Source: Actinomycetota bacterium
Lineage (GTDB): Bacteria > Pseudomonadota > Gammaproteobacteria > Burkholderiales > Rhodocyclaceae
NCBI GenBank assembly: GCA_050259815.1
Contig: JBLNBI010000222.1
Location: 1 to 14,429, forward strand
Direction: 5' to 3'
DNA length: 14,429 bases
The position numbers were made by a program, and so were the translations under genes. Every line of letters starts with the position of its first letter. Positions within the stretch are counted from its first letter, which is position 1. Below are positions 72-8,682 of the stretch, piece after piece. The notes beneath the pieces are model-generated. The model saw only the letters and a list, made by a program, of their open reading frames with translations. It did no database searches and was not told the DNA's origin.

Positions 72-2246
72 ATGGGCCTCATCGTCAACCTGGCCTCCTA
101 CCTCTCCCAGCTGTCGCTGACCAATCTTCGCCTGAGGGAAAGCCAGGGGCAGATGGAGGCCCTGATCAACGCACTGCCGGACCCTATCTGGCTCAAGGAC
201 ACGGAGGGCCGTTTCCAGGCCTGCAACCGCGCCTTCGAGCGCATGCTCGGCAGTTCCGCCGACCGGATTCTCGGCAAGACCGACCACGATTTCTTTCCCG
301 AGGCGATCGCCCGGTTCTTCCGCAGCAAGGACGAAGAGGCGCTGGCGGCGGGCCAGCCTAGCAGCAACGAGGAGTGGATTCCCCTGGCTTCGACCGGAGA
401 ATCCATTCTCGTCGAGACGGTCAAGGCGCCCCTGCCGGGAATGACCGGCGAACCGGTCGGCGTCCTGGGCATTGCGCGGGACATCACCGAGCGCAAACAG
501 GCCGAAGATCATCTGCGCCTGATGTCCAAGGTCTTTTCCAACAGCGGCGAAGCCATCCTGATCACCGACTCGAACAACAGGATCCTGGCCGTCAACAAGG
601 AATTCACCAAGCTCACGGGTTATAGCCCGGAAGAGGTCTACGGACGGAACCCGAGCATGCTGTCCGCGGGGAAAGCCTCCCGCGAAGTGTATGAGGAAAT
701 GTGGTCTTCGCTGGCCGCCAACGACTACTGGCAGGGCGAACTCTGGGACCGCCGGAAGTCCGGCGATCCGTATCCGAAGCGTCTTTCCATCTCCGTGGTC
801 CGCGACGAACGGGGCAACGTCACCAATTACATCGGCCTGTTCCAGGACATCACCAAAACCAAGGCGGCCGAAGACAAGATCCGCCATCTGGCCCATCACG
901 ACGCCCTGACCGGCCTGCCCAATCGTTTCAGCCTGTACCAGCGGATGGAGCAATCCATCGCCTTTGCGCGACGCTTCGATAAACGGGTCGCCGTCCTGCT
1001 GATCGACCTCGACCGGTTCAAGTCCATCAACGACACCCTCGGCCACAACGTGGGCGATCAGTTGCTGATCCAGGTTGCCTCCCGCCTCAGTCAGTCGGTG
1101 CGGCAAACCGACATCGTCGCCCGCCTGGGCGGTGATGAATTCGTTATCGTCCTGACGGGAATCGAACTCGGCCGGCATGCGACCGAAATCGCCGACAAGA
1201 TCGTCCAGCAGATTTCCCTTCCCTACAGCATCGCCGGCCATGTGCTGCGCACTTCTCCCAGTGTAGGTATCTGCCTGTGCCCGGATGACGCTCTGGAGAT
1301 CAACGATCTGATCAAGAACGCGGACATCGCCATGTATCAGGCCAAGGCGCTCGGCCGCGGGAACTACCAGTGCTATACGGAAGGCATGCGGGCGGAGGTG
1401 GCCCGACGGGTCACCGCCGAAAAGGAATTGGAAGCCGCGCTGGACCAGGGCCAGTTCGTCCTGCATTACCAGCCGCAAATCGATCTGGCAACCGGCAGCG
1501 TCACCGGCATGGAAGCCTTGATCCGCTGGCAGCATCCAAGCCGCGGGCTGGTTTTTCCGGGGGACTTCATTCCCGTTGCCGAAGAGACCAACCTGATCAT
1601 CCCTCTGGGCAAGTGGGTACTCGAAGAAGCCTGCCGGCAGTTGAAAGATTGGCATCAGATGGGGCTGGCTCACCTCACTGTTTCGGTCAATCTCAGCGCC
1701 GTCCAATTCGAGGACATCGCCTTGCCGACTCTGGTAGCCAATGTGCTGGAGACCTGCGGACTGCCTCCCCACAGCCTCCATCTCGAAATTACCGAGTCGA
1801 TGGCCATGAGGCGTCCGGAAGACAGCATCCGCATGATGAACACCCTGGCGGATATCGGCGTGAAACTGGCCTTGGACGACTTCGGCACCGGCTACTCTTC
1901 TTTAGCCTATTTGAAGCTCTTCCCCCTGGATATCATCAAGATCGACCGGGCCTTCGTCAAAGATCTCGAAACCGACGAGAACAACGCGGCCATCTGCGAA
2001 ATGACCATGCTGCTCGCCCAGAAGCTGGGCAAGCGGGTAGTGGCCGAAGGGGTCGAAACCGAGGACCAGCGTCGATTCCTGTCGGAGATCGGCTGCCAGG
2101 AGATTCAAGGTTATCTCTACAGCAAGCCCTTGCCTGCGCCTCGGGCGGCGGCGTTCGCCGAAGGCTTTTCCGTGGCGGAAGCTTGCGACTTGGCTTCAGC
2201 GGATGTGCAACACTTCCCAGCGAAGTCGGTCCAATCGAAACCTTAG
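72..2246 (+). CDS. PAS/PAC-PAS-GGDEF-EAL c-di-GMP signalling protein (diguanylate cyclase/phosphodiesterase)
   Basis: 724-aa ORF. GGDEF motif intact (RLGGDEFVIV). EAL motif intact (EALIRWQHP), plus the DDFGTGYSSL and KIDRAFV EAL catalytic motifs. The N-terminal ~290 aa carry PAS-like repeats. Stop TAG at 2244-2246. Confidence 0.9.
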   Translation: MGLIVNLASYLSQLSLTNLRLRESQGQMEALINALPDPIWLKDTEGRFQACNRAFERMLGSSADRILGKTDHDFFPEAIARFFRSKDEEALAAGQPSSNEEWIPLASTGESILVETVKAPLPGMTGEPVGVLGIARDITERKQAEDHLRLMSKVFSNSGEAILITDSNNRILAVNKEFTKLTGYSPEEVYGRNPSMLSAGKASREVYEEMWSSLAANDYWQGELWDRRKSGDPYPKRLSISVVRDERGNVTNYIGLFQDITKTKAAEDKIRHLAHHDALTGLPNRFSLYQRMEQSIAFARRFDKRVAVLLIDLDRFKSINDTLGHNVGDQLLIQVASRLSQSVRQTDIVARLGGDEFVIVLTGIELGRHATEIADKIVQQISLPYSIAGHVLRTSPSVGICLCPDDALEINDLIKNADIAMYQAKALGRGNYQCYTEGMRAEVARRVTAEKELEAALDQGQFVLHYQPQIDLATGSVTGMEALIRWQHPSRGLVFPGDFIPVAEETNLIIPLGKWVLEEACRQLKDWHQMGLAHLTVSVNLSAVQFEDIALPTLVANVLETCGLPPHSLHLEITESMAMRRPEDSIRMMNTLADIGVKLALDDFGTGYSSLAYLKLFPLDIIKIDRAFVKDLETDENNAAICEMTMLLAQKLGKRVVAEGVETEDQRRFLSEIGCQEIQGYLYSKPLPAPRAAAFAEGFSVAEACDLASADVQHFPAKSVQSKP

Positions 2247-2523: not shown

Positions 2524-2679
2524 ATGGGAATACAAATTGAGTTGAACAAAGGTCGCGTGCCGGTCAAGGTCTGGACCCGCGACATCGAGCCGGACGCCAT
2601 CCGGCAATTGCTGAACGTCGCTTCGCTGCAGGTCGTGCATGGCCACACTCAGAAGCCAGTGCTCTGCGTGAAGGAGTGA
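2524..2679 (+). CDS. 51-aa ORF homologous to the N-terminus of RtcB (possible rtcB remnant or stand-alone N-domain protein)
   Basis: AGGA 6 nt upstream of ATG. MGIQIELNKGRVPVKVWTRDIEPDAIRQLLNVASL aligns with the N-terminus of the bona fide RtcB in this window, MTYQLQEVQNGKPIKLWTEGVPVEDDARVQLMKTAR. The shared pattern is G[KR]-P-[IV]K[LV]WT...P.-DA.-QL...A. Confidence 0.4.
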   Translation: MGIQIELNKGRVPVKVWTRDIEPDAIRQLLNVASLQVVHGHTQKPVLCVKE

Positions 2680-2994: not shown

Positions 2995-3297
2995 ATGGAC
3001 CACCACGCTATCGAAGAAATCATCGCTTGCCTTCGGGGTGAGCGCACCGTCTATCCCTATTACCGAGACCGCTACAGCATCGGGCTGTTGCGCCAGTTGA
3101 GCCGCCACGGCCGCCGTGCCGAGCCCCTCAGTGTCGCGTCCCTGAAGAAATTCCTCTTCGCGCCGACGAGCGAGGTGCCGCCTTTCCTGGCGGAGGACAA
3201 GGAGGTGCGCCAAGTGCTGCGGAGGAATCCGGAGATCGGGTTCTTTTGCCTGCGTCCGGATAGCTCGGTGCAGACAGGCGGGCCGCTGATGGACTAA
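2995..3297 (+). CDS. Hypothetical protein (100 aa from ATG 2995; ORF track starts at TTG 2947)
   Basis: High-GC ORF with no recognisable motif. A strong SD (AAGGAG 2914-2919) with ATG 2925 opens a different frame, a 38-codon ORF ending at 3041. The true start is therefore ambiguous. Confidence 0.45.
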   Translation: MDHHAIEEIIACLRGERTVYPYYRDRYSIGLLRQLSRHGRRAEPLSVASLKKFLFAPTSEVPPFLAEDKEVRQVLRRNPEIGFFCLRPDSSVQTGGPLMD

Positions 3298-3562
3298 CGA
3301 ACCAGCCCCAGCCTGCCCACGGCGCTCGCCAGCAATCCGCGGCCGGTGCTGCTGCATTGCCGCAGCGGGTACCGGACTAAATTAACAATAGGCTGCTTGT
3401 CGGCCTAAGCCGAACTTGGGCCTCTAGCCAGAATCGGGCGGCTATGCGCCAGTTACCAGCCGCTGATGACGGTTAATGGCCGCTTTCGTCATCGGCATGG
3501 GGGCAGCACCCGACCCAAACCGGAAGTTGCGACCTTTAGAAAGCGGACGGTCTGGAACGTGG

Positions 3563-3605
3563 AGCTAACCGGTCTGCGCGGCTTTTCGCGCAGCTCCGGT
3601 TGAGC
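3563..3605 (-). other. Short attC-like palindrome after last cassette (GCTCAAC...GTTAGCT on - strand), or a simple hairpin
   Basis: On the - strand: GCTCAAC-cgg-AGCTGCGCG-aaaag-CGCGCAG-accg-GTTAGCT. The inverse core matches RYYYAAC. The core is degenerate and the element is only 43 bp, which is short. Confidence 0.3.
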
Positions 3606-3611
3606 GACGGG

Positions 3612-4229
3612 TTAGGTATTTGCGCGAGAAAACTCTGCATGATCGTACAGTGTGAGTTGAGCCGCCAATGCAAGCTCCTTGGCTGTGGAGCTTTCTGATG
3701 CTCTGACAATTAACGAGCAATAGGAATCCGAGTTTGTCTCGAAGTGCAGAAGCGCAAAGTCTCTATCGGCCAACCAGTCGGACAAGGCCAGTAATGCTTC
3801 GGGAACTGAGCGGAATTCCGTTTCGCAATCATGCTCCCAGCGCTGGTTGATGCCGAATGTGGCCAGAATCTCTGAAACCTGCCAAACGATTTCCTCGCGT
3901 GCCTTCCAATCCAACTGGATAAACACCCATTTCCCACGCCGTTGGCCTTCTTCACCGGACATGACTTCGCTCAACGCATCGAACATGTCTTCGGAGTCAT
4001 CTAGAGCTCGTTTCGCAACTCGGCACAAGCGTTGAACTTCACTCTTGTTCAGCTGGGCCGTTGCAAATTGAAGGAAGTTCTGTAGGTTCTTTTTCTTTCG
4101 CCATAACTCGGCCTTGTTCGTCGGATGCAGTAGTTCCCAAATCTCGTCGTCAGGCACATTGGTATCAATAGGCTCTGCCGGGGTTGTGAGATTCCTGTTG
4201 AGCAGCTTGCCTAGAAACCTAAGCATCAT
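3612..4229 (-). CDS. Cassette ORF A, hypothetical protein (205 aa)
   Basis: ATG lies 5 nt after core site GTTAGGT. Lower GC. No recognisable catalytic motif. Confidence 0.6.
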   Translation of the reverse strand: MMLRFLGKLLNRNLTTPAEPIDTNVPDDEIWELLHPTNKAELWRKKKNLQNFLQFATAQLNKSEVQRLCRVAKRALDDSEDMFDALSEVMSGEEGQRRGKWVFIQLDWKAREEIVWQVSEILATFGINQRWEHDCETEFRSVPEALLALSDWLADRDFALLHFETNSDSYCSLIVRASESSTAKELALAAQLTLYDHAEFSRANT

Positions 4230-4233
4230 GAAT

Positions 4234-4290
4234 ACCTAACGATTGAATTAAGCGGCGCGGTAAGGCATCCGCTGGAATGCCGGGTTGGGC
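4234..4290 (-). other. attC-like site (57 bp): R'' GCCCAAC ... R' GTTAGGT (- strand)
   Basis: Inverse core GCCCAAC lies 31 nt after the stop of ORF B. Core GTTAGGT lies 5 nt before the ATG of ORF A. The 3' half (CCGCTTAATTCAATCGTTAGG) is conserved with the other two sites. Confidence 0.55.
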
Positions 4291-4320
4291 CTGAGCCAGA
4301 GCATGGCTGAGCAACGGCCG

Positions 4321-5061
4321 TTACCAGAGCCGCCACCACGGGCGCTTGCGCGCTCCTGCGCCTACGCCTTGGTCAAGCTGAGAAACGCTGGTGTCGGTTT
4401 GCTGCGCATCCCTGGTATCAGGTTTGGAGCAATGCCAGTAATAGTCGCCACCTAGATATCCAGCATCCAGCGCCCGGGAGGAATCGAGGCGAGCGGCATG
4501 GTCCAGTTCCGCGGGCGATCGCGAATAGAAGTCTTCTGCGCTAAACGGTTGGAACCCCTCGTGGTATCCAGCCCAGAACTTCAATAGCTCCATTGGCGGT
4601 AGCTGGGACTTGAAACAGGCTGAAAACTTGTCTGCTGCCTCGGCGATGTACCCCATGAGAAGCACCTCAATAGGGTTCATGGCGAGATACGGCAATGGAA
4701 GCTCCGCCAAGCCTTCGCAGGCGCGCTGCCAATACCCTTCGCCTAAGGCGGTATCGCCCGCCATCTCCTGGAAAGTCTCAAGGCTGGCTTGCAGGTTGTG
4801 CCATGCGGTCGCCACGTCAATGCAAGGAAGGTGAACGGTCAGCTCATCCGGCCCATTCTCTTGTCCCCAATATTCCAGTGGAACGTGCACTTCAGTTAGC
4901 TGCGCGCCGCGGAAACAACAGAACCATGGAAGCGGGACGCGATACGACACTTCTGCGATTTCTGCGTAGTTGGCTTGCGGGCCTTGCCGCAATGCTGCCT
5001 GCAGGGAATAGGGGTCGCCGGTCAGAGTTGGCGTATTCAGTAGGTACGCACGATTTGCCAT
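4321..5061 (-). CDS. Cassette ORF B, hypothetical protein (246 aa)
   Basis: Lower-GC ORF. A 70-nt leader follows the attC core and contains a 9-codon uORF (MKSNLTNDL, 5070-5099). Confidence 0.6.
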   Translation of the reverse strand: MANRAYLLNTPTLTGDPYSLQAALRQGPQANYAEIAEVSYRVPLPWFCCFRGAQLTEVHVPLEYWGQENGPDELTVHLPCIDVATAWHNLQASLETFQEMAGDTALGEGYWQRACEGLAELPLPYLAMNPIEVLLMGYIAEAADKFSACFKSQLPPMELLKFWAGYHEGFQPFSAEDFYSRSPAELDHAARLDSSRALDAGYLGGDYYWHCSKPDTRDAQQTDTSVSQLDQGVGAGARKRPWWRLW

Positions 5062-5130
5062 GTCAGACCCTACAGATCATTGGTTAAGTTCGACTTCATC
5101 TGTTCCGCTTCAAGGAAGCGCGACCCTGAA

Positions 5131-5223
5131 GCCCAACGATGGAGGTAAGCGGACTGCCGCGCGAGGCGCAACAGGAAGGCCAAGGCGGGTGTCCGGCAGG
5201 TCCGCTTGACCGTAGGCTTAGGC
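5131..5223 (-). other. attC-like site (93 bp): R'' GCCTAAG (degenerate) ... R' GTTGGGC (- strand)
   Basis: ~90-bp direct repeat of the 5709-5798 element. Shared segments are AACGATGRARGTAASCGGNCTGCCGCGCGAGGCG and GGCAGKTCCGSTTGAC. It contains an internal imperfect inverted repeat, aagcggactgccg / cggcaggtccgctt. Confidence 0.55.
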
Positions 5224-5253
5224 AATGACTTAGTCATGTGGTGAACTGCCGGG

Positions 5254-5703
5254 CTATACACGACGAAACAGAAGATCAAAAGAGATTCCGGGAACGCCAT
5301 GCATCGCTGTTAAGCAGTTGCCGTCGTCACGCCAAATATAGAGCTGCTCCCCGACTTCTTGGCCGGATGGGTATAGCGGAAATATCCATGAACGTCGGGC
5401 CTTAACGATACTAAGAGCTGACGCTTCGTATGTTCCTGCAAAGAAGTAAATTGATCCGTTCTCTGCATGTCCTGTACCCGATTCCTTGGCTTCGGAAAGG
5501 CTGGCCGCATCAAGGGATTCTGTGAATTTCCAAAAAGGGAAAGAGCTGGTCGTGTTGTCTTTCTCTGAGCGCGAAACGCTGATCCACTTTCCGTCCGGAT
5601 AAAAGCGAAAGAAAATCGTATTCCAGCCACGTAGCAACCCGCCTCCATGCATTTCTTCCCAATAGGACGGACGTGACAAGTAATAGCCGTTTGTGTGAGG
5701 CAT
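5254..5703 (-). CDS. Cassette ORF C, hypothetical protein (149 aa from ATG 5703; ORF track extension to 5754 would run through the attC)
   Basis: ATG (MPHTNGYY...) lies 6 nt after core GTTAGGC. The longer ORF-track start overlaps the repeat element and is unlikely. Confidence 0.55.
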   Translation of the reverse strand: MPHTNGYYLSRPSYWEEMHGGGLLRGWNTIFFRFYPDGKWISVSRSEKDNTTSSFPFWKFTESLDAASLSEAKESGTGHAENGSIYFFAGTYEASALSIVKARRSWIFPLYPSGQEVGEQLYIWRDDGNCLTAMHGVPGISFDLLFRRV

Positions 5704-5708
5704 GCTGT

Positions 5709-5798
5709 GCCTAACGATGAAAGTAACCGGCTGCCGCGCGAGGCGGGCAGCCATGACGACGACGGTTCTCGGCAGTCCGGTTGACTGGATTGTTAGGC
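5709..5798 (-). other. attC-like site (90 bp): R'' GCCTAAC ... R' GTTAGGC, perfect inverse/core pair (- strand)
   Basis: GCCTAAC starts 9 nt after the TAG of ORF D. GTTAGGC ends 6 nt before the ATG of ORF C. Internal inverted repeat caaccggactgccg / cggcagccggtt. Confidence 0.6.
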
Positions 5799-5804
5799 TG
5801 CTGG

Positions 5805-6203
5805 CTATTTGAACTCAAAGCGAACGTTTTTAACGACCTGATGCTTACCCCAGAAGAAGTTGCAAACCCTTGCAACCTCTGCTCCGTCCTTACTTTCGGG
5901 AACGCACCCGCCCTTGATGGTTACCGATTTTTCCCCTTGCTTTGACAGCGGGAACTCCATTGATATGCCTTCAGGGATGACATGTTCAAGCTGCACGTTT
6001 TCGGAATAGTCATCAACGAGGGCGAATATCATGACCTTGTCGGCTTTGAGCGTGTAAAGGTCATGTTGGAACGCGGCCCCTGGCAAGAGACACATTTCAA
6101 TGACCGATTTCTCAATAGTCTGCTGCTTGCATTGTGGTGGCTCGGCAGCCTGAACGCTAAATGCAGCACATGCCAACCAGACCGAGAAAATTGAATATTT
6201 CAT
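5805..6203 (-). CDS. Cassette ORF D, small secreted protein (132 aa, signal peptide MKYSIFSVWLACAAFSVQA, 4 Cys)
   Basis: GAGGA SD 5 nt before ATG. N-terminal hydrophobic signal sequence with an AXA-like cleavage site. Confidence 0.65.
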   Translation of the reverse strand: MKYSIFSVWLACAAFSVQAAEPPQCKQQTIEKSVIEMCLLPGAAFQHDLYTLKADKVMIFALVDDYSENVQLEHVIPEGISMEFPLSKQGEKSVTIKGGCVPESKDGAEVARVCNFFWGKHQVVKNVRFEFK

Positions 6204-6241
6204 GAATTCCTCAATAAGAAGGTGAGAGAGGGAATAAAGCA

Positions 6242-6308
6242 GTCTAACTTCGTTTTAGGGAGACTGTTTTGACGGATAACTTCGGCGCCTGTCTCCCTAA
6301 CTTAGGAC
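6242..6308 (-). other. attC-like site (67 bp): GTCCTAAG-TTAGGGAGAC-(26 nt)-GTCTCCCTAA-aacgaa-GTTAGAC (- strand)
   Basis: 10-bp perfect inverted repeat (6255-6264 / 6291-6300) nested inside a degenerate inverse core and a GTTAGAC core. The core lies ~39 nt upstream of the ORF D ATG. No ORF lies upstream of it, so it marks an ORF-less cassette or the edge of the array. Confidence 0.5.
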
Positions 6309-6785
6309 TGTCATATCGCCGGAAACCGGCATGATTACGGGCTTTTGGAAACTTAGGCGAGGTGACCATGGCTGCTAAAAATGCGTGAAAAGCGGCGCGC
6401 CAGTACATTAGCATAACGCTCATCTTGTATGTCTGCTATGAGCAGCAACAGCCAAGGTCCGCTCCTGGCCGGAAGCGCCTGTTGGGGTTCCTTCCCCCAA
6501 AGCAGACAGTGATCTAAACCAGTCCTATTCAACGACCGCGATCGGGCTCTTACTTAAGACGTGTGCCCCCGGCCAGGAGCCGCCCGTCACTATCTCTACT
6601 GAGCAACCATCCAAACGACCGCGGTGCTGAGCGAACTGCCAGTCAAGGCGGATAATTCGGCCTCATGTTGAGATCCACATAAGGCCGACATTCCACCCGT
6701 GAAAAGTCGTCTTGGATGGAAAGCGTTACTGCGATTCGATCGATAGCCAGACTCCGCTCGTGAGACTGATGTATCTTTGCCGCCC

Positions 6786-7379
6786 ATGAACTACCTGGCT
6801 CATGGCTTTCTTGCCGGTTCCGTTCCTGCGTTGGTTGTCGGTGGGGTTGCCGGCGACTGGGTCAAAGGACCGCTGCCCGGCCTCCTGCCGCCGGATTTGG
6901 CGCAGGGCGTGGCGCTGCACCGGGCCATCGACGCCTTCGCGGAAACCCATCCCGCCTTTTGCCGTAGCCGGGCGAGGATGTCGGCCGGGCGCCGTCGTTA
7001 TGCGGGGGTTCTGGTTGATATCTTCTACGATCATCTGCTGGCCCGTGACTGGTCAGAATTCAGCGATGAAGGGCTCAATGCCTACTGTTCAGGGGTGTAT
7101 CGGCAGATCGGGCTTCGCCTGCATGAGTTGCCCGAGTCGTCTCAAGGCGCGTTAGCGCTGATGGCCCGCGAAGACTGGCTACAGAGCTATCGTGACCTGA
7201 CCGGCATTGCCGATGTTCTGGACCGCATGTCGCAGCGGGCAAGACAGCCCAATCCGCTGGCCGGCGGCGAGCAGGAGTTCATGGCCGATCCTTTGGGTTT
7301 CTCCGATGATTTTCGCTGCTGGCTCGAGGATGCCAAGCGCTTCACCGAAGGCTGGCGGGCCAACGTTTTCGGATTGTGA
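6786..7379 (+). CDS. acpH: Acyl carrier protein phosphodiesterase (AcpH family)
   Basis: MNYLAHGFLA... N-terminus. Also HRAIDAF, DIFYDHLLARDWSEF and WLQSYRDL blocks that match the E. coli AcpH pattern (MNFLAHLHLA...HRRID...DVMWDHFLSRHWSQL...WLVRYRDM). Confidence 0.75.
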   Translation: MNYLAHGFLAGSVPALVVGGVAGDWVKGPLPGLLPPDLAQGVALHRAIDAFAETHPAFCRSRARMSAGRRRYAGVLVDIFYDHLLARDWSEFSDEGLNAYCSGVYRQIGLRLHELPESSQGALALMAREDWLQSYRDLTGIADVLDRMSQRARQPNPLAGGEQEFMADPLGFSDDFRCWLEDAKRFTEGWRANVFGL

Positions 7380-7620: not shown

Positions 7621-8646
7621 TCAGGCCACCGCAACGCTATACCCCGTATCCCCCTCCTCGCACCGAAACTCCACCGCCAGAAACTTCTCGATCACTTCGA
7701 TATTGGTGTGCAGATGCGAGGACAGCGTCGTCGTCGTGAAACTGCCCTTCCCCGCTAGGGCCAGGGGAAGGAGTAGCTGGTCGGCAAGGTGCTCGCCGAC
7801 CGCGCCAGCCCCATCACGGAATTGGCGCACCCGCTTGGCGACGCCATCGGCGACGCGCTCCGCCGGCAGGCCCCGCTCGCCAAAGCCGGTGAAGACTTCG
7901 GCAAAACCGGGATAGACCAGATCGACCATGAGCGCATTGCCCGGCCCTTCACGGGAGGGCAATTGGCGCAGTTGCCGCTCGACCGGCCCCAACTGGGCGG
8001 CCAGGCGGTCGAGTTCCCGGAGGGCCACGTCGCCCGGCACCCCGGCAACCACAGCCGTCGCCCGGATTTCCTGCAGTTCGCCGCGAGTCTCCAGCGACAG
8101 GGCCGACAGGCTTCCACCGCCACCCGCCAGCGGCCGGATGCTCGCCTTCACCTCGCCGCCCCCGGCCGGATAGAAACCGTGGCGGAGCAGTTCGATGTCC
8201 ATATCGACGCCCATGGCGCGAACCAGCGGCAGCCAGGAGCGGATCAGGAAGTCTGCCGGCGGCGCAGCCGGGTTGTGGGTGCCGCCGCTCACGGTCAGGG
8301 TGGCCGGCCCGTCGGCGAACCACAGCGCCGGCGCGACGGTTTGCAGGACCAGGGTGCAGCTCCCCGCCGTACCGATGGCGAAGCGGTAATCGCCGCCCCG
8401 AATGCGGCCCGGCGCAAAGGAGAGCGTCTGCGAGCCCGGCGCCGCGCCCTCCACCTCGGCCCCGCAAACCTCCGCCGCCGCTTTGACGGCGGTCAGGTGC
8501 TGGCGCAGCAGCCCCGGCTTGGCGCGCCCGGCACGGATCTTCTCGATGCGAAAGGGCGTGCCCGTGATCATCGAGAGGCTCAAGGCCGTGCGCAGGATCT
8601 GGCCCCCGCCCTCTCCCCGGGAGCCGTCCAGTTCTATCGTTTGCAT
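7621..8646 (-). CDS. rtcA: RNA 3'-terminal phosphate cyclase RtcA
   Basis: 341 aa. N-terminus MQTIELDGSRGEGGGQILRTALSLSMITGTPFRIEKIRAGRAKPGL, which includes the GGGQILR pattern of RtcA. AAGGAAA SD. Last gene of the operon. Confidence 0.9.
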   Translation of the reverse strand: MQTIELDGSRGEGGGQILRTALSLSMITGTPFRIEKIRAGRAKPGLLRQHLTAVKAAAEVCGAEVEGAAPGSQTLSFAPGRIRGGDYRFAIGTAGSCTLVLQTVAPALWFADGPATLTVSGGTHNPAAPPADFLIRSWLPLVRAMGVDMDIELLRHGFYPAGGGEVKASIRPLAGGGGSLSALSLETRGELQEIRATAVVAGVPGDVALRELDRLAAQLGPVERQLRQLPSREGPGNALMVDLVYPGFAEVFTGFGERGLPAERVADGVAKRVRQFRDGAGAVGEHLADQLLLPLALAGKGSFTTTTLSSHLHTNIEVIEKFLAVEFRCEEGDTGYSVAVA

Positions 8647-8682
8647 GTTGCTTGTTTCCTTCTTGTTGTTATGTAGCCGAAC

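Follow-up and report, generated by a model that had tools for sequence, protein, structure and literature searches.

A four-cassette integron array with an attI1-like site at its head and no integrase nearby

Introduction

When an integron is active, its integrase (IntI) makes the bottom strand of an attC site fold into a hairpin. The R box, the unpaired spacer at the centre and the extrahelical G/T bases mark this hairpin for IntI, which recombines it with attI between the G and the TT of the R core, new cassettes entering at the head of the array. The present study concerns an array of this type that stands apart from any integrase, on the minus strand at 3552-6301 of a 14,429-nt stretch of DNA (the window: contig JBLNBI010000222.1 of assembly GCA_050259815.1). 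The array consists of an attI site followed by four promoterless cassettes, each made of one open reading frame (ORF) and one attC, and its attI is homologous to attI1, the site of class 1 integrons. With a probability of roughly 0.85, we read it as an integron (attI plus four cassettes) that was separated from an IntI1-like integrase by deletion or rearrangement.

The closest described elements are attC-site clusters without an integron-integrase (CALINs), for which four origins have been considered possible, rearrangement among them (Cury et al. 2016, PMC4889954). By the definition of that study and of its program, IntegronFinder, which asks for at least two attC sites within 4 kb, the element in the window is a CALIN: four attCs lie within 3552-5798 and no intI is found within 4 kb, the distal side being covered for 3.55 kb. 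Like other CALINs, the array is small and carries cassettes of unassigned function that are unrelated to resistance cassettes; unlike them, it keeps a recognisable attI at its head. IntegronFinder finds attI by exact match to class 1-3 sequences only (Cury et al. 2016, PMC4889954), and would therefore miss this site.

Class 1 integrons are the second point of comparison. Their platform shares with the window the box architecture of attI, and the geometry of the window attCs is indistinguishable from that of aadA2 and aadB. The window has, however, no intI1, no 5' or 3' conserved segment (5'-CS, 3'-CS) and no resistance cassette, and it lies in a chromosomal context (acpH, an rtc operon and a GGDEF-EAL gene). 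A blastn comparison of the window with two class 1 loci at word size 11 returned nothing, and neither qacEdelta1/sul1 nor Tn402 DNA was found. The element is thus not a class 1 integron.

Two kinds of chromosomal integron are also relevant. Those of Xanthomonas resemble the array in being chromosomal and beside a housekeeping gene, in having lost integrase activity and in being stable, whereas they usually keep an intI pseudogene beside ilvD and the window retains no trace of intI (Colombi et al., bioRxiv 10.1101/2025.06.18.660453). Large sedentary integrons hold tens of cassettes with homogeneous attCs; the window holds four cassettes with heterogeneous attCs. It is not a large sedentary integron, its short, heterogeneous array being more like those of mobile integrons. 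Also close is a metagenomic locus, L010 (JGI 3300045290), which shares with the window a decayed platform, a homolog of cassette 3 in second position and a GTCTCCC motif in the attI region. The two differ in what is left: L010 keeps the 5' end of intI and has lost the GTTA core of its attI, whereas the window has a complete attI and no intI sequence.

An attI1-like site at the head of the array

The site at the head of the array (Table 1) is identical to attI1 at 44 of 59 positions (75%, E = 3e-6). Its local alignment score of 39 lies about 12 standard deviations above the scores of 1000 dinucleotide shuffles (mean 14, standard deviation 2.1, maximum 24), and a search of the site against all fetched loci matched attI1 only, in seven of seven class 1 loci. 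The boxes within 6242-6301, namely direct repeats 1 and 2 (DR1, DR2), L and R, all have their counterparts in attI1; the R cores share GTTAG, and DR2 and R are 32 nt apart in both sites. DR1 and DR2 are separated by 21 nt here, versus 19 nt in attI1.

DR accessory boxes are described as peculiar to attI1 and missing from most other attI sites, and integrons that have diverged show no identity between their attI sites (Vit et al. 2021, PMC8191803). A search for relatives of the L010 integrase fragment yielded four integrons, none with a similar attI, which could be used only as a negative control. These four metagenomic integrons, with integrases 48-63% identical to IntI1, scored 12-19 against attI1 or the window site, which is background. 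We infer that the integrase that once served the window attI was considerably closer to IntI1 than these four are.

The initial annotation had placed an attC here, pairing GTCCTAAG with GTTAGAC (6308-6242). This part of it does not stand: the class 1 attC model described below (R3) gives no match at 6242-6308 at E ≤ 10, the bulged G is absent, the 3' spacer measures 0 nt, and the sequence resembles attI1 instead.

Four attC sites found by an independent covariance model

Rfam contains no attC family, and an independent covariance-model test was therefore built, as a substitute for the attC model of IntegronFinder (criterion there, E < 1). Six training attCs were read from class 1 integrons on annotated plasmids: aac(6')-29a, blaVIM-2, arr-3, aacA4, aadB and aadA2. 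Full-length attCs could not be aligned by MAFFT. The model used, R3, contains the class 1 attC arms only; N stands for the variable loops, which preserves their lengths, and the search filters were off. It replaced a first model built from trimmed sequences (R1), which failed to find the sites of 90 and 93 nt; a short maximum hit length is the probable cause.

On the 14.4-kb window, R3 returned exactly four significant matches, all on the plus strand and at the predicted sites: attC1 (38.4 bits, E = 3e-8), attC3 (30.1 bits, E = 4e-6; 28.8 bits with the trimmed model), attC2 (26.1 bits, E = 4.6e-5) and attC4 (match at 3550-3617, 20.6 bits, E = 1.3e-3). The matches next in rank are these sites read on the opposite strand, or noise at E ≥ 0.59. 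As a control, R3 recovered all known attCs in the class 1 loci, including the untrained hybrid aac29b, dfrA27 and an intron-split site (locus L017), and gave no false positives below E = 0.01 in these loci except opposite-strand echoes. The reciprocal model, R2, was built from the four window sites only and searched against 78 kb of class 1 and metagenomic loci; its top matches include aadA2 (E = 2e-8), aadB (E = 5e-6) and aacA4 (E = 7e-3), each on the correct strand.

Structurally, the plus-strand DNA of attC1, attC2 and attC4 folds into the same pattern: an R box of 7-10 bp, next to it an unpaired spacer of 6 nt on the 5' side and 5 nt on the 3' side, and beyond this 3 bp, a bulged G, a further 6-7 bp and another bulge. 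Their dot-bracket pattern is that of the bottom strands of aadA2 and aadB folded with the same parameters. In attC1 the bulges are a G and a T, and attC4, with its bulged G, folds at z = -3.9. It is the 3' half of the plus strand that carries the bulges; the plus strand is therefore the recombinogenic bottom strand, as the direction of the minus-strand ORFs requires; this check is independent of the palindromic cores. The covariance search and the bottom-strand folding, both proposed in the initial annotation, thus gave four significant matches where they were predicted and on the strand expected, and the extrahelical bases typical of attC.

The general architecture that had been read from the letters also stands, namely an integron-type cassette array without a nearby integrase. 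Four mutually unrelated proteins are encoded on one strand; each ORF starts 4-69 nt past a GTT core and has an imperfect palindrome of 57-93 nt downstream of it. Two details are revised. The attC after the last ORF, ACCTAAC...GTTCCAG, had been overlooked, and its R' is non-canonical. ORF 2 had been started at 5754; its actual start is at 5703, after the attC core. The four attCs are heterogeneous in sequence as well as in length, with pairwise identities of 47-72% over the alignment.

In the model alignment, the R' end of the last attC (3550-3560) reads GTT-CC-AGAC, which differs from the attI core GTTAGAC by two additional bases. It may be a mutated scar of the array's original attI-derived end.

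Table 1. Coordinates of the array, its recombination sites and the flanking features in the window
Feature	Position	Strand	Sequence or content	Remark
attI site	6242-6301	-		Homologous to attI1 of class 1 integrons
DR1	6295-6301		GTTAGGG	attI1: GTTATGG
DR2	6274-6280		GTTATCC	attI1: GTTACGC
L box	6255-6261		TCCCTAA	attI1: GCCCTAA
Spacer of attI			AACGAA	attI1: AACAAA
R (crossover core)	6242-6248		GTTAGAC	
Cassette 1	5709-6247	-	ORF 5805-6203 (132 aa); attC1 5709-5798 (90 nt)	
attC1 cores			R'' GCCTAAC; R' GTTAGGC	Both canonical
Cassette 2	5131-5714	-	ORF 5254-5703 (149 aa); attC2 5131-5223 (93 nt)	
attC2 cores			R'' GCCTAAG; R' GTTGGGC	Final base of R'' off
Cassette 3	4234-5136	-	ORF 4321-5061 (246 aa); attC3 4234-4290 (57 nt)	
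attC3 cores			R'' GCCCAAC; R' GTTAGGT	Both canonical
Cassette 4	3552-4239	-	ORF 3612-4229 (205 aa, DUF6630); attC4 3552-3617 (66 nt)	
attC4 cores			R'' ACCTAAC; R' GTTCCAG	R'' overlaps the stop codon; R' degenerate
Non-coding spacer	6302-6785	.	484 bp, GC 54%	Fills the usual place of intI and its promoter
acpH	6786-7379	+	Acyl carrier protein phosphodiesterase (Pfam PF04336, E = 7.5e-56)	Abuts the integron remnant; begins 484 bp from attI
PAS-GGDEF-EAL protein gene	72-2246			Left flank; ordinary chromosomal gene
Right flank past acpH			rtcR / band-7 / rtcB / rlaP / rtcA cluster and two tRNAs	Ordinary chromosomal genes

Cassettes shared with other arrays

Of the four cassettes, 1 and 3 were compared with other arrays, and both recur there. 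Cassette 1 (6248-5710) is 88% identical to a mid-array cassette of the metagenomic array L025. The homology starts exactly at G6248 of the attI core, whose counterpart in L025 is the GTTGGGC core of the preceding attC, and a breakpoint of this kind is the signature left by insertion of an attC cassette at attI (attI x attC). A counterpart of cassette 3 occurs in two loci: in L010, where window positions 5138-4268 are matched at 74% DNA identity from the GTT of attC2, and in L011, where positions 5195-4237 are matched at 68% identity up to the attC3 core. Because homology starts or stops at GTT crossover points in unrelated metagenomic arrays, the alignments show cassettes 1 and 3 to be discrete mobile units. 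The initial annotation had considered that the same genes might prove to be syntenic core genes; they are not, cassettes 1 and 3 occurring in other arrays, with homology that ends at the crossover points.

Two of the loci are long cassette arrays. L011 (1-10280) has at least nine attC matches and cassettes for SIR2_2, DUF6714 and Peptidase_C92 proteins, and L025 (1-6696) has three attC matches and a cassette for Imm6, an immunity protein; neither contig carries an integrase. In L010, the order is an intI pseudogene (8479-8670, minus strand; 52% identical to IntI1 residues 2-65, then a stop), a degenerate attI without the GTTA core, an ankyrin cassette and the cassette 3 homolog. L010 is a second decayed integron, possibly of a lineage related to that of the window.

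The missing integrase and the origin of the array

The place usually held by intI and its promoter is filled by a non-coding spacer (Table 1), and every search for an integrase was negative. The best tblastn match to IntI1 over the whole window, at E ≤ 100, had E = 0.12; Pfam assigned each long ORF to another family or to none, with no integrase among them; the six frames of 6301-6790 were empty at E ≤ 10; and Rfam had no match in the spacer. The attI side is free of intI for 8.1 kb and the distal side for 3.55 kb. Resemblance to the class 1 platform ends within a few bases of DR1, and upstream of DR1 the similarity to the 5'-CS is not significant. Beyond the spacer, acpH lies on the strand that intI would ordinarily occupy.

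Under the preferred reading, an integron separated from its integrase, an IntI1-like enzyme would have built the array by insertion between G6248 and T6247, cassette 1 being the latest arrival. Its gene would later have been deleted or relocated, with a breakpoint within a few bases upstream of DR1, and the array would now be static unless an IntI1-like enzyme were supplied in trans. The initial annotation had left the choice between a CALIN and a decayed chromosomal integron; the array is a CALIN by definition, and the retained attI favours an integrase that was lost or separated. Whether the cassettes are expressed is uncertain, since intI is gone and no consensus promoter was found upstream.

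Several observations weigh against this reading. No integrase pseudogene or scar is visible, so the loss of intI is argued from the position of attI. An apparent remnant of the promoter and start codon of intI, at 6309-6480 on the far side of attI from the cassettes, scored 15, against a shuffle mean of 16 (n = 1000), and was withdrawn. A window-like attI beside an intact intI was found neither in a pattern search of JGI metagenomes, which gave zero exact matches to the site, nor among the relatives of the L010 integrase. Only 3.55 kb of contig follow the last attC. Among the attCs, the fold of attC3 by itself does not exceed shuffles (z = +0.74), and its geometry shows up in the model alignment alone, where the L box has one A/G mismatch; some of the sites may be inactive, to judge from the non-canonical R' of attC4 (GTTCCAG) and from R'' of attC2, which has G for C. 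A sigma-70 consensus scan of 3300-6900 on both strands gave no match, the scan being strict and limited to the sigma-70 type.

The alternative that survives best is a sub-case of this reading and not exclusive of it. An inversion or translocation between intI and attI would have left an intact integrase elsewhere in the genome, and the array would be serviced in trans. Rearrangement is a listed origin of CALINs, half of which lie in replicons that encode an IntI (Cury et al. 2016, PMC4889954); the attC cores appear intact, with one exception, and a relic of rtcB opposite the intact rtc cluster (see below) hints at a local rearrangement. The integrase-free distances on both sides of the array argue against it, as does the cassette order, which is the same across the three runs that could be compared and shows no sign of ongoing shuffling. 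We consider this sub-case possible, though unlikely.

Serial insertion at a secondary site (attG), the integrase being encoded elsewhere or brought by a transient plasmid and no platform ever being present at the locus, would also account for the absence of an integrase. Integrases are able to insert cassettes outside att sites (Loot et al., bioRxiv 10.1101/2022.09.11.507474), and intI pseudogenes are absent from most CALINs (PMC4889954), as they are here. The head of the array weighs against this origin. It is homologous over 59 bp to the entire attI1, including DR1, DR2 and the DR2-to-R spacing; great differences between attG and att sites are reported (Loot et al., bioRxiv 10.1101/2022.09.11.507474); and the control integrons, for all the similarity of their integrases to IntI1, have no such attI, which makes a chance likeness unlikely. 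Because the attI is retained, loss or rearrangement of intI is favoured over secondary-site insertion, which we hold to be very improbable.

An assembly artefact, in which an integron head was joined to an unrelated acpH fragment at a repeat and the missing integrase is an assembly error, is still harder to sustain. The contig derives from a metagenome-assembled genome (MAG) whose taxonomic label looks wrong, and assemblies of the population break at attC2. However, the assemblies of three runs (SRR24085898, SRR24085899 and SRR24085900) each run from acpH through the 484-bp spacer and attI into cassette 1, the spacing being the same in all three, and no repeat was found at the boundary between attI and spacer.

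The remaining alternative, that the palindromes are repetitive extragenic palindromic (REP)-like elements or terminators between small native genes and their cores coincidental, starts from the shortness of the motifs (GTTRRRY occurs 14 times and RYYYAAC 12 times on the plus strand of the window) and from the poor fold of attC3 alone, and is effectively refuted by four matches (E = 3e-8 to 1e-3) to a model trained on unrelated class 1 sites with nothing else below E = 0.5, by a bulge asymmetry that agrees with the ORF direction, by the breakpoints at cores in the other arrays that carry cassettes 1 and 3, and by the absence of terminator-like T-runs from the attC sites. Promoter and terminator consensus scans were otherwise empty or at background.

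Two observations concern the spacer and the assemblies themselves. Folded as RNA in the cassette direction (minus strand), the 468 nt at 6309-6776 reach z = -4.6, with none of 100 shuffles as good; the plus strand folds at z = -2.2. The spacer contains a strong hairpin at 6657-6688. The independent short-read Logan assemblies L008, L020 and L021 (SRR24085898 and SRR24085900) break inside attC2, about 100 nt before cassette 3, which suggests similar attC repeats or alternative cassette junctions elsewhere in the community.

Significance for CALINs and class 1 integrons

CALINs are frequent, yet the origin of one is usually unknowable, because attI sites are unrecognisable outside classes 1-3. 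Homology to attI1 at the head of the array allows this CALIN to be assigned a cause, an integrase that was lost or separated. The locus also presents an attI1-like site with DR boxes outside class 1 proper, in a chromosomal, environmental and probably betaproteobacterial context, which is relevant to how class 1 integrons arose and to whether chromosomal arrays can exchange cassettes with them. An IntI1 arriving, for example, with a class 1 integron on a plasmid could conceivably insert cassettes into the array or remove them, a rather doubtful prospect. If it were true, the locus would be a natural reservoir feeding novel cassettes to clinical integrons, and a sequence fossil for tracing the origin of attI1 and of its accessory DR sites. 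The array adds four cassette families of unassigned function, that of cassette 1 being widespread in Burkholderiales. Current understanding is not overturned.

Cassette proteins

None of the four cassettes is a resistance cassette, and their proteins had nothing significant in NCBIfam or PADLOC. The toxin/immunity and defence roles suggested in the initial annotation find no support there or in structural matches, and are speculative. The initial annotation had described all four as lacking a recognisable motif; this holds for NCBIfam and PADLOC and fails for cassette 4, whose protein is a DUF6630 member (Pfam PF20335, E = 5e-20). Its remark that one protein is secreted and contains cysteines was borne out by cassette 1, which encodes a conserved secreted all-beta protein with a Sec-type signal peptide and four invariant cysteines. 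This family has 160 members at 58-97% identity, mostly from Burkholderiales (Comamonas, Ralstonia, Herbaspirillum, Duganella and related genomes).

The proteins of cassettes 2 and 3 are rarer. That of cassette 2 has no close relative, and 16 distant ones among 1.8 billion representatives. Its domain occurs in seven tandem copies in two long proteins, P0142 and P0143 (1269 and 1498 aa), and by this comparison the cassette 2 protein is a stand-alone copy of a tandem repeat module. That of cassette 3 has 17 relatives among 5.8 billion proteins; its structural model is moderate (predicted local distance difference test, pLDDT, 66) and gave no fold match.

Flanking regions and host

The array differs in base composition from its surroundings, with a G+C content of 53%, whereas the left flank has 61% and the right flank 65%. 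A drop had been noted from the start and is real, though smaller than the fall from about 67% to about 50% then given. Ordinary chromosomal genes lie on both sides (Table 1), and the two tRNAs are the only Rfam matches in the window.

AcpH is 70-72% identical to proteins of Thauera and other Rhodocyclaceae. Its relatives in 185,579 species genomes reach at most 72% identity, and none is syntenic with the window, so that a comparison with an empty site is impossible. The contig was deposited within an 'Actinomycetota bacterium' MAG. The likeness of AcpH to Thauera and Rhodocyclaceae proteins and the occurrence of the cassette 1 family in Burkholderiales make it probable that the contig is a mis-binned piece of betaproteobacterial DNA.

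Between the last attC and the GGDEF-EAL gene lie two small ORFs on the plus strand, 2683-2877 (64 aa) and 2995-3297 (100 aa), which have plausible ribosome-binding sites and no matches in Pfam or NCBIfam. They are oriented toward the array and have no attC boundaries. Beside them, a 51-aa ORF at 2524-2679 (plus strand) resembles the N-terminus of RtcB (aa 7-43, 34% identical, E = 1e-3) and ends in the final 10 residues of RtcB (60% identical). It appears to be the relic of a second rtcB with an internal deletion. Its position, across the array from the intact rtcR-rtcB-rlaP-rtcA genes, hints at a past rearrangement or deletion in the region.

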